From Rubrivivax sp. (GTDB taxonomy: Bacteria; Pseudomonadota; Gammaproteobacteria; Burkholderiales; Burkholderiaceae_C): a stretch of DNA of 64,000 bases. Position 1 is the first letter of the stretch. Each line of letters opens with the position of its first letter. This document shows positions 3,719 to 48,682 of the stretch, one piece after another. Made by a program: the position numbers and the translations under genes. The DNA lies in the NCBI GenBank assembly GCA_045864135.1, contig BTVT01000023.1, forward strand, positions 1,964-65,963, in the 5' to 3' direction. The notes under the pieces were generated by a model. That model searched no databases and was not told the DNA's origin. It was given only the letters and a program-made list of their open reading frames with translations.

Positions 3719-4030
3719 ATGGCTGACATCGTACGACTCCCCGACGAACTGGGCGGGCAGCTTCAGGCGCGCCGCAGGGCGCTTGGGCTGAGCAAGTCCG
3801 AACTGGCGCAGCGTGCCGGCAAGGTGCGCGAAGTGGTCTATCGACTGGAAGCGGGAGCCGACAGCACGGTGTCCTCGCTGCTGGCCGTTCTGGGCGCGCT
3901 GGGTCTGGCACTGCGCCTCGAGCCCGTGGGCCTGCCCACGGCCGAAGAGGTGGCGCGGCGCTTTCGCATGGACGACGAGTCGGACGGCGGCGGCGATGGC
4001 GAGGATGGGGACGACCACCGTGCGGCCTAG
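3719..4030 (+). CDS. XRE/HipB-like HTH antitoxin with acidic C-terminal tail
   Basis: ARRRALGLSKSELAQRAG...YRLEAG HTH pattern; overlaps the downstream HipA-like gene. Confidence 0.85.
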   Translation: MADIVRLPDELGGQLQARRRALGLSKSELAQRAGKVREVVYRLEAGADSTVSSLLAVLGALGLALRLEPVGLPTAEEVARRFRMDDESDGGGDGEDGDDHRAA

Positions 4031-5264
4031 CGGTCTGCCCGAACGCGTGCGCGCGCTCGACGTTTCGATCGGCGAGCGCGCGCGTGCCGGCCAGTTGCTG
4101 AAGACCTCGATCTACGAGTTCCGCTACCTGAGCGCGCAAGCCGATCAGGATGCCGTCGCCTTGCTGATGGCCGCGCGCGAGCGCCTGACCTGGCAGGACG
4201 GCGATCTGTTCGCGCCCATGGACCAGAACCTTCCCGAAGGCGACCTGTTCCTACGCATCCGCCAGCTCTTTCCGAAGCAGGCCATGACGCCGATGCACCT
4301 GCTGGCGCTGATCGGCGCCAACGGCATCGGGCGCCTGGGTTACCGGCTGCCCGACGCACCAGCGCCCGCCCTGCCGCCGCCCATCGGCAAAGCGAGCCTG
4401 TTGAAGACGCGCTTCAGCCCAGCGGTGTTCGACGAGCTGGTCGCGGCCTACCTGAGCACCGGCGCAGGGATCGCCGGCATCCAGCCCAAGATCATGGTGC
4501 CCGAGCGCGCGACGGTGCCCATTCCCTCGCTGATCGTGAAGGCGGGCAGCGCCGCCTATCCTGGGCTGACCGCCAACGAGTTCCTCTGCCTGTGCGCCGC
4601 GCGGCGCGCAGGCCTCGAGGTGCCGGGCTTCGACTTGTCCGACGACGGGCAGATGCTGGTGCTGGACCGCTTCGACCTCGTGACGCAGGCCGACGGGCGC
4701 CTCGAGCGCCTGGGCTTCGAGGACATCGCTGCCCTCGCCGGCCTGCGCGTGCGCGACGTGCTGGCCGACCGCAAGTACCAGGGCAGCTACGAACGCGTGG
4801 CCGAGTTGCTGCGCCTGCTCCAAGTGCCAAGCGTCAATCTGCAGCGCTTCTTCCGCCAGGTGGCCTTCTCGGTGATGGTCCGCAACGGCGACGCCCACCT
4901 GAAGAATTTCGGCGTGCTCTACCGGAATGCGTCGGATGTCTGGCTCGCGCCGATGTTCGACGTCGTGACCACGGCCATCTACACCTACAGCCGCTATCCC
5001 GGCGGCCCCGAGCTCGAGGATCGCACCCTGGCGCTGAAGCTCTTCGCCGGCCGGCGCGCGACCAGGGCCTACCCCTTGCGCGAGGAGCTGCTCGACTTCG
5101 GCCGCCGCATCTGTGGCGTCGGTCAGCCCGCGCGCGAGCTGGACATCCTCGCGCAGGCAATGCAGGAGACGCTGCAAGAGGCGCGCAGCGACGAGCGCAT
5201 TCCCGCGCCCTTGCTGACGAGGATGCGCAGCGCCTGGAACGAGGGTCTCGCGCTGGCGCACTGA
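4005..5264 (+). CDS. hipA: HipA-family Ser/Thr kinase toxin
   Basis: AGIQPK Gly-loop/Lys, NGDAHLKNF catalytic loop, LAPMFDV; start uncertain (3996 or 4005). Confidence 0.88.
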   Translation: MGTTTVRPSGLPERVRALDVSIGERARAGQLLKTSIYEFRYLSAQADQDAVALLMAARERLTWQDGDLFAPMDQNLPEGDLFLRIRQLFPKQAMTPMHLLALIGANGIGRLGYRLPDAPAPALPPPIGKASLLKTRFSPAVFDELVAAYLSTGAGIAGIQPKIMVPERATVPIPSLIVKAGSAAYPGLTANEFLCLCAARRAGLEVPGFDLSDDGQMLVLDRFDLVTQADGRLERLGFEDIAALAGLRVRDVLADRKYQGSYERVAELLRLLQVPSVNLQRFFRQVAFSVMVRNGDAHLKNFGVLYRNASDVWLAPMFDVVTTAIYTYSRYPGGPELEDRTLALKLFAGRRATRAYPLREELLDFGRRICGVGQPARELDILAQAMQETLQEARSDERIPAPLLTRMRSAWNEGLALAH

Positions 5265-5337
5265 GCGTGCCGAGCCCACCAAACGACCGCCGGGCCGTCC
5301 AGCGCGCAGCGCCGCGCCGGCCCGGCCCTTGCGCTCC

Positions 5338-48403: not shown

Positions 48404-48645
48404 GCGCGGCCCTGCCCGATCAGCTCGGCCAGCGTCGCGCCCTGCACCTCGATCGGCTCGAAGGCCTGCAGCGCGGCCAGGGCACGCTCGCGTTGGCGAT
48501 GGCGCGCACCCGCCGCGTGCGCCACCGGCACGATGCGGGCCACGGGTTTGTTGTGGCGCGTGATCACCACCTCGTCGCCGCGCTCGGCGCGCGCGATGAG
48601 TTCGGAGAGATGCGTCTTGGCCTCGAACAGGCCCACGGTGCTCAT
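48400..48645 (-). CDS. Phd/YefM-type (VapB) antitoxin
   Basis: [37 protein letters not shown]. Confidence 0.92.
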
Positions 48646-48663
48646 GCTCTGCGCCTTGGCTCG

Positions 48664-48682
48664 TCTGGTTGATTCAACCAGA
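48664..48682 (-). promoter_or_regulatory. Operator palindrome of the vapBC(-alaS) promoter
   Basis: Perfect TCTGGTTGA-t-TCAACCAGA, abutting a TAAAAT -10 box on the minus strand. Confidence 0.7.

Follow-up and report, generated by a model that had tools for sequence, protein, structure and literature searches.

The window, by which we mean the whole 64-kb stretch of DNA analyzed here, lies on contig C23 of the draft genome of a Rubrivivax species (G000; 4.1 Mb, 80 contigs) and carries six type II toxin-antitoxin (TA) modules within a 45-kb span, interspersed among housekeeping genes. These encode a ROK kinase, a DUF4953 metalloprotease, EttA, ComEC, DsbB, UbiM, FumC, a three-gene 2-oxoacid:acceptor oxidoreductase (kor) operon, an MFS transporter, ParC, an acyl-CoA synthetase, AlaS and a LysR regulator. 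By its ParC, the organism belongs to the Burkholderiales and falls in a large genus of Rubrivivax/Piscinibacter-type genomes, most of them metagenome-assembled genomes (MAGs). The six modules occupy five gaps, defined by the genes for ROK kinase and DUF4953 metalloprotease (site 1), UbiM and FumC (site 2), the Kor-type oxidoreductase and the MFS transporter (site 3/4), ParC and acyl-CoA synthetase (site 5), and AlaS and the LysR regulator (site 6). Two of these gaps lie between convergent gene ends, and the other three lie upstream of kor, parC and alaS.

Organization of the TA modules

Because the window has a GC content of 71%, genes were called by codon bias over the whole draft genome, and candidates were checked against Pfam and NCBIfam. 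The matches obtained support the six modules where an earlier note on this DNA had placed them, and the identified flanking genes agree with its statement that they sit in five separate gaps between housekeeping genes. The first module (HipBA-1) consists of a HipB-like helix-turn-helix (HTH) antitoxin (3710..4030, plus strand; HTH_3, E=2e-5; couple_hipB, E=1e-7) and a HipA-family kinase toxin (4047..5264, plus strand; HipA_C, E=9e-40; Couple_hipA, E=7e-8, 33.4 bits) with GDAHLKN and FDVV motifs. The second (HipBA-2) pairs a HipB-like HTH antitoxin (23095..23427, plus strand; HTH_31, E=3e-7) with another HipA-family kinase toxin (23440..24714, plus strand; HipA_C, E=4e-43; Couple_hipA, 22.3 bits, at the cut-off of 22.5). 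In both cases the HTH gene lies upstream of hipA on the same strand, separated by 16 nucleotides (nt) in HipBA-1 and 12 nt in HipBA-2, and the HTH and HipA pairing is retained in 78 of 80 (HipBA-1) and in 37 of 37 related loci. Read by eye, both HipA proteins present a catalytic-loop-like D-x-H-x-(K/R)-N loop (GDAHLKN and NDDHPRN).

The third module is composed of a YefM/Phd antitoxin gene (31435..31677, plus strand; PhdYeFM, E=6e-18; YefM, E=1e-8) that overlaps by 4 nt the downstream gene for a YoeB toxin (31674..31937, plus strand; TIGR02116, 83.5 bits against a cut-off of 51.8) with a C-terminal HY. Toxin-first gene order is typical of BrnTA, and the fourth module shows this order, with a gene for a BrnT-like toxin (32000..32287, plus strand; BrnT_toxin, E=4e-6, positions 1-75 of 77, 27.6 bits, below the Pfam cut-off of 34.5) followed by one for a BrnA/CopG-type antitoxin (32280..32594, plus strand; CopG_antitoxin, E=6e-5, 24.1 bits, below the cut-off of 28). 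Since both genes score below their Pfam cut-offs, this pair is the weakest of the module calls. In the fifth module, an 82-amino-acid (aa) putative antitoxin (36431..36679, plus strand), without a family match in Pfam or NCBIfam and assigned this role from position alone, overlaps by 4 nt the start of a PIN (VapC-type) toxin (36676..37056, plus strand; PIN, E=1e-15, positions 2-117 of the 120-position profile) with acidic residues D10, E47, D95 and D113. The sixth module, a Phd-family antitoxin (48400..48645, minus strand; PhdYeFM, E=6e-14) and a PIN (VapC-type) toxin (47951..48403, minus strand; PIN, E=1e-8), is chained to alaS (45312..47954, minus strand; tRNA-synt_2c, E=2e-212), with ATGA overlaps at 48400-48403 and 47951-47954 joining the three genes on the minus strand (45312-48690). 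Direct reading of both PIN toxins indicates that the four acidic residues are kept, and those of the sixth module (D, E, D and D) are invariant in 14 sequences.

Overall, 10 of the 12 module open reading frames (ORFs) match Pfam or NCBIfam, eight of them above the curated cut-off, and one more is paired by a 4-nt overlap. By family, gene order and position, the sequence confirms all six modules as type II TA pairs, the BrnTA assignment being tentative. Short palindromes or direct repeats of 8-19 nt lie upstream of the modules. They are putative operators, of the palindromic or repeated kind that the earlier note had attributed to five of the six modules. Those of HipBA-2 (22982-23099) comprise four copies of GATATGGC and an 18-nt palindrome.

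Comparison with related genomes

The nearest relatives are other species, mostly MAGs. We fetched their homologous stretches, mapped the window proteins and DNA onto each, and took as insertion junctions the blastn breakpoints of filled versus empty sites; the flanks of related loci were read from lists of their ORFs. The relatives include Rubrivivax sp. SCN 71-131 (G049) and Burkholderiales MAG UW1SPNA031 (G033), each with a ParC 90% identical to that of the window, as well as G005 (87%) and G008 (86%). G049 is collinear with window positions 1-38726 on a single contig, and synteny with G033 is maintained across the junctions. This conservation bears on the reliability of the modules themselves. 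High-GC DNA gives many long spurious ORFs and the genome is a draft, features that could point to spurious gene calls or to a mis-assembled or contaminated MAG contig. Such an artefact is nonetheless very improbable, given the family matches described above, the unbroken synteny with G049 over 38.7 kb and a genome contamination of 0.43%.

Three of the five sites have clean counterparts lacking the modules of the window. At site 1, the inserted segment (3501..5341, 1.84 kb) extends from the ROK kinase stop to the stop of the convergent DUF4953 protease gene according to the breakpoints against G033 and G049, and neither relative has a module there, the gap amounting to 62 bp in G049 and, in G033, to 67 bp unaligned (65 bp between genes). 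At site 3/4, a 1.48-kb segment (31242..32716) with YefM-YoeB and BrnTA reaches from the kor operon start to the MFS stop, as delimited by blastn breakpoints, and no TA module is found at this site in G049 (38 bp unaligned), G033 (40 bp unaligned) or G008 (178 bp between genes). At site 5, the segment (36331..37078) runs from the ParC start to the acyl-CoA synthetase stop, and no insert is present in G033, with 83 bp unaligned, or in G008, with 109 bp. Exact empty sites were therefore recovered in G049, G033 and, for the two sites that its contig covers, G008, as the earlier note had proposed to look for. No toxin or antitoxin remnants were detected in the empty sites (38-109 bp gaps). These comparisons indicate that HipBA-1, YefM-YoeB, BrnTA and the antitoxin-PIN pair are recent insertions at three sites, private to this species.

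Some of the same gaps hold other TA modules in relatives. Site 5 of G049 contains 683 bp with an antitoxin and a ParE/RelE-family toxin (Pfam E=1e-7) on the opposite strand (G049:C14 ~231150-231830, loci L155/L156), and the boundaries of the two cassettes coincide in G000 and G049, after GCGGGGGATTTT and just past the synthetase stop. In locus L182, a pair of the HipBA-1 family lies directly upstream of the kor operon, in the counterpart of window site 3/4. At site 6, G009 (L103, 7884-8524) and G023 (L104, 7374-8008) carry a different Phd-PIN pair before alaS, with a toxin 35-39% and an antitoxin ~60% identical to those of the window. Hence, the comparative evidence points to reuse of the same gaps by unrelated TA modules in relatives.

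Other differences at these gaps were also observed. The parC start and the start of the module 5 antitoxin are divergent and 167 bp apart (36264-36430), so that the parC promoter region abuts an operator-like inverted repeat (36387-36419); G049, unlike G033, shares with the window the 67 bp immediately upstream of parC. G005 holds 8.5 kb of non-TA genes in its MFS-kor gap, among them genes for a transcriptional regulator with TPR, secreted proteins and a cNMP-binding protein, and ~9.7 kb between homologues of ComEC and prolyl-oligopeptidase, whose genes are neighbours in the window (G005:C20 ~46900-55450 and 66100-75900, loci L082-L084).

The two remaining modules have a different distribution. 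HipBA-2 is present at site 2 of G049 in full synteny, with 97% (antitoxin) and 96% (toxin) aa identity, and both FumC and HipBA are missing from this site in G005 and G010. The fumC gene is single-copy in G000 and is not found at the UbiM-FumC place in G005 or G010, and the ubiM homologue of G005 looks truncated (215 aa, 54% identical). The ParC-centred loci of more distant genomes (74-79% aa identity) were too diverged to define junctions and showed that window region 21629-33960 is variable; this 12-kb block, spanning ubiM, hipBA, fumC, the kor operon, two TA modules and the MFS gene, is missing between dsbB and parC in L045, L075, L004, L005, G040, G021, G012 and G029, which are distant congeners and neighbouring genera.

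The Phd-PIN module at site 6 is present in G033 with 96-98% identity. A toxin search recovered it in 13 species-level Rubrivivax/Piscinibacter-type genomes (loci L157-L169), in every case as the immediate upstream neighbour of alaS; the PIN stop and the alaS start are 0-50 bp apart, and the five closest have the ATGA overlap. Across these 13 species, PIN identity (67-97%) tracks AlaS identity (72-96%), and the antitoxins are 54-98% identical. Since it is conserved before alaS in 13 species, Phd-PIN is not a recent capture, and its distribution identifies it as an old, vertically inherited module under purifying selection. The site is cleanly devoid of Phd-PIN in G005 and G008 (138-157 bp), absences that the same pattern identifies as losses. 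The pair in G009 and G023 departs widely from the identity trend seen across the 13 species and probably replaced the module there independently.

With the three genes chained in this way, alaS may rely on the TA promoter. Upstream of Phd, at 48664-48682, is a perfect palindrome, TCTGGTTGA-T-TCAACCAGA, and the 138-157 bp alaS leader of G005 and G008 contains a TACAAT-like box. A scan for sigma-70 promoters and terminators around vapBC-alaS returned nothing, such a scan being uninformative in 71% GC DNA, and a literature search for vapBC linked to alaS produced no relevant report.

The earlier note had concluded that the region repeatedly captures bare TA cassettes, and had named conserved synteny across relatives as one of two observations that would speak against this. 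Capture is well supported for the four modules at three sites with clean empty counterparts, where homology stops at the cassette ends, and these four are not conserved in synteny. Synteny is, in contrast, found for Phd-PIN across 13 species and in part for HipBA-2, in G049, and the idea of recent capture does not extend to the old Phd-PIN module.

Composition and transfer of the modules

Following a comparison that the earlier note had suggested, the 44 non-TA genes of the window have a GC content at third codon positions (GC3) of 0.946 +/- 0.017, against 0.70-0.91 for the TA genes (Mann-Whitney p=2e-7). Most TA genes have values of 0.70-0.85, those of HipA-1 and the alaS-linked pair being 0.90-0.91, and codon scores of the TA genes are also low. 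The oldest module, Phd-PIN, has a GC3 of 0.90, among the highest of the TA genes. None of the six modules shares more than 48% identity with another or with anything else in the genome, and we therefore regard them as independent arrivals; recent duplication within the genome was ruled out as a source on the same grounds, since no paralogue exceeds 48% identity.

The limits of homology with foreign loci define HipBA-2 as a transferable unit (22897..24757, including the upstream operator-like repeats). This cassette matches contigs binned as Limnobacter, Rhodocyclaceae and Hydrogenophaga (L118, L119 and L120) with 93-96% protein and 91-92% DNA identity. The DNA match starts at 23078 in L118, 23092 in L119 and 22897 in L120, and stops at 24757 in L118 and L119, the L120 contig ending at 24664. 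TrmB on the 71-kb Rhodocyclaceae contig (L119) is only 57% identical to the window TrmB, and a cassette-limited DNA match of 91-92% beside so diverged a gene indicates that HipBA-2 has recently crossed family and order boundaries. It was transferred as a bare cassette of ~1.7-1.9 kb and, judging from its synteny in G049, is older than the split from that species while still moving between distant Betaproteobacteria. Similarly, the HTH and HipA pair of the HipBA-1 family occurs in at least 80 Burkholderiales loci with up to 82% aa identity and unrelated flanks, and DNA homology of HipBA-1 to 80 other Burkholderiales loci is confined to 3665-5282.

A search of PLSDB returned no close plasmid donor, the best aa matches being 57% for HipA-2, 44% for the module 5 PIN toxin and 62% for YoeB, together with one DNA match of 68%; with best matches this low, plasmid donors were ruled out for PLSDB. 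The ComEC/Rec2 DNA-uptake channel gene of the window (17914-20403) encodes Competence, DUF4131 and Lactamase_B domains.

The comparison of sites could alternatively be read as differential erosion, with the modules ancestral to the genus and lost in relatives. This is clearly the case for Phd-PIN, which is shared by 13 species and cleanly absent from G005 and G008, and TA loss is described as frequent in the Photorhabdus work discussed below (PMC13617665). Extended to the four private modules, it would require at least three independent precise deletions (in G049, G033 and G008) that left no trace of toxin or antitoxin in gaps of 38-109 bp; the GC3 of these modules is far below the genome norm, and the TA density of G000 was put at 3-4 times that of every relative sampled (73 toxin-domain matches versus 20, 35 and 8). 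We consequently regard ancestral presence followed by loss as an improbable account of the modules as a whole.

No integrase or transposase was found among all genes called in the window by family scan, and two small ORFs (10073-10489 and 54997-55353) have no family match. The genome encodes 15 tyrosine integrases (PF00589), none of them on C23. Searches for terminal direct or inverted repeats flanking the cassettes, target-site duplications and res-like palindromes gave only weak GC-rich chance matches. These results uphold the earlier statement that integrases, transposases and terminal repeats are lacking from the window. No attC-type imperfect inverted repeats were seen at cassette ends, a dedicated attC model not having been applied, and no Tn3-type res-like palindrome is duplicated at cassette ends or shared between empty sites and insert ends. 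Furthermore, core genes stand between the TA cassettes, which make up no array, and the only tRNA gene of the window confirmed by Rfam at the gathering threshold (tRNA-Gly, 54714-54784) lies away from all modules. With the defining features tested and not encountered, the region is not an island, a prophage or an integron. ARAGORN additionally called a tRNA-Ser(CGA) at 40833-40916, overlapping the kynureninase 3' end; it is without Rfam confirmation and doubtful.

TA content of the genome

To place the window in its genomic context, we counted six toxin families (PIN, ParE/RelE, HipA, HigB, MazF and BrnT). The total is a lower bound, since the count covers these six families, and the set is biased toward the families of the window. 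G000 carries at least 73 toxin domains (17.8 per Mb), comprising 43 PIN, 15 ParE/RelE, 3 HipA, 2 HigB, 4 MazF and 6 BrnT. The same census gave 20 matches in G033, 35 in G005 and 8 in G008; PIN matches number 14 in G049, where only this family was counted, and 2-25 in 12 other congeners, versus 43 in G000. These counts make G000 a TA-expanded outlier in its genus. Moreover, an integrase is found within 20 kb of just 6 of the 73 toxins, which makes bare TA loci the norm in G000.

The window holds two of the three HipA genes of the genome, and the six toxins in its 45-kb span represent 7.5 times the genome mean and the genome maximum. Under random placement of 73 toxins, the probability of a maximum of at least six is 0.036 for 45-kb and 0.13 for 64-kb spans. 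This uniform null is lenient because TA loci co-localise genome-wide, with 16 adjacent toxin pairs within 5 kb against 5.9 expected (P<0.001), and 14 without this contig. The density of the span thus does exceed the genome average, but in a TA-rich, TA-clustered genome its rank as the richest 45-kb span departs from chance only marginally (P ~0.04-0.13), and the case for a special nature of the region is weak. The densest TA knot of the genome is found at C1:329587-336890, where three PIN toxins, one ParE and the third HipA lie within ~8 kb, and further tight TA pairs are present on C4, C7, C9, C12, C19, C29, C33, C37 and C51.

These distributions also bear on whether the 45-kb stretch is a dedicated TA-capture hotspot, in which a local feature near the parC, kor and alaS promoters or a trans-acting recombinase would steer bare cassettes into these gaps. 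Such a hotspot would account for a toxin count that no other 45-kb span of the genome reaches, for the different TA families held in relatives by three of the five gaps, and for the identical boundaries of the site 5 cassettes of G000 and G049. Its statistical footing is eroded by P values of only 0.04-0.13 under a null that is itself too lenient given genome-wide clustering, and by the choice of the counted toxin families partly from this window; in addition, a tighter knot exists on C1 (329.5-337 kb) and the junctions share no motif or repeat. Finally, since G005 holds 8.5 kb of non-TA genes in one of these gaps, they behave as general variable spots. On balance, a dedicated hotspot seems unlikely.

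Discussion

Taken together, these data make it likely that the window is ordinary core chromosome in a lineage with a genome-wide expansion of type II TA systems, in which autonomous cassettes of differing ages have entered permissive gaps by horizontal transfer. The modules are discrete two-gene cassettes that fill entire intergenic gaps, and each would constitute an autonomous unit of ~0.6-1.9 kb with its own promoter and operator. Cassettes would enter the cell by DNA uptake through transformation or on a transient vector; the ComEC gene in the window is compatible with natural transformation as the entry route and does not prove it. Rare insertion by illegitimate recombination into a permissive intergenic gap would follow, and homologous recombination through the conserved flanking core genes would then allow the cassettes to spread and be replaced among relatives. 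The addictive, selfish properties of TA pairs would favour their retention, after which modules would ameliorate and eventually be lost or, exceptionally, become entrenched, as before alaS, where Phd-PIN would now belong to the alaS transcription unit. The apparent cluster would thereby represent the upper tail of a clustered, TA-dense genome and not a dedicated capture device.

Several observations weigh against this interpretation. The count of six toxins in this span is the highest of the genome and would nominally be improbable with toxins placed uniformly (P=0.036 for 45 kb), on account of which some local preference is possible. The relatives are different species, with a ParC identity of ~90%, and their junctions have diverged, such that any small target duplications or res-like palindromes may have been erased. 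Likewise, MAG binning could misassign some of the foreign contigs carrying HipBA-2, although L119 is independently supported by its diverged TrmB. Neither a donor nor a vector of the cassettes was found, the best plasmid matches being 44-62% identical at the aa level. Lastly, BrnTA scores below Pfam thresholds and the module 5 antitoxin has no family assignment.

The closest parallel to the pattern described here comes from Photorhabdus, in which 80 type II systems have been reported in one chromosome, enriched in small core-gene intervals or 'spots', with 12 of them alone in their interval (Belot, Payelleville, Jurenas, Rocha, Van Melderen, Mol Biol Evol 2026, PMC13617665). The Photorhabdus systems co-localise, are heterogeneous among congeners, sometimes lack a mobility gene, and were acquired independently and lost frequently; some of the cassettes are linked to Tn3-type res-like palindromes (PMC13617665). 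The finding of TA systems alone in small core-gene gaps renders outdated the premise of the earlier note that TA modules usually reside in islands, prophages or integrons (PMC13617665). The genome analyzed here is similarly TA-rich (at least 73 toxin domains, compared to 80 systems in Photorhabdus), with co-localised loci, a patchy presence in congeners, independent gains, clean losses and some loci without a mobility gene. It differs in belonging to a Burkholderiales lineage with 71% GC and in having one long-lived module fused to an essential gene, whereas the Photorhabdus work stresses short-lived linkage (PMC13617665). A further difference is that no Tn3-type res-like palindromes are found here at cassette ends, nor a single copy in empty sites; species-level divergence could, however, hide such sites. 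The pattern itself is already described for chromosomal TA spots and, though well documented here, is ordinary.

Other bodies of work offer points of comparison. Ramisetty and Santhosh (2016) reportedly described horizontal transfer of chromosomal type II TA systems in Escherichia coli, with modules present or absent between conserved flanks without obvious mobile-element hallmarks. That study worked at the strain level within one species, whereas our comparison is between species, and the junctions here are consequently less sharp. An expansion of VapBC/PIN toxins in Mycobacterium tuberculosis and other free-living bacteria was likewise reportedly described by Pandey and Gerdes (2005) and Ramage et al. 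(2009). As in M. tuberculosis, dozens of PIN toxins (43) reside here in one chromosome and few in close relatives; unlike it, the expansion occurs in another phylum and concerns a single species in a genus of environmental and bioreactor bacteria. Single TA operons also act as discrete mobile cargo accumulating side by side in chromosomal (super)integrons, as TA cassettes, and in Tn3-family transposons (Lima-Mendez et al. 2020, cited in PMC13617665). By comparison, no IntI, attC array, transposase, resolvase or inverted repeats were found in or near the window, no search with a dedicated attC model being made.

The reuse of gaps and the Phd-VapC-alaS chain invite a bolder proposal, that the gaps upstream of parC, alaS and kor are recurrent docking sites at which unrelated TA cassettes are inserted and swapped without a recombinase, and that a docked cassette could take over the promoter of the downstream essential gene, as with alaS. 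We hold this to be possible and rather doubtful. If true, promoter take-over would make the cassette hard to delete and place the synthesis of alanyl-tRNA synthetase (AlaRS) under TA autoregulation.

Our results document, down to the junctions and in a little-studied high-GC Betaproteobacterial lineage, a clean case of type II TA pairs behaving as autonomous selfish cassettes. They suggest that TA pairs enter the core chromosome without visible mobility genes, reuse permissive gaps and differ widely in age within 45 kb. In doing so, they support the published model of TA acquisition and erosion, to which they add no new mechanism, and correct the idea of an obligatory island location. The one element of wider interest is the conserved VapBC-alaS chain, which contradicts the usually short-lived linkage between TA modules and their neighbours.

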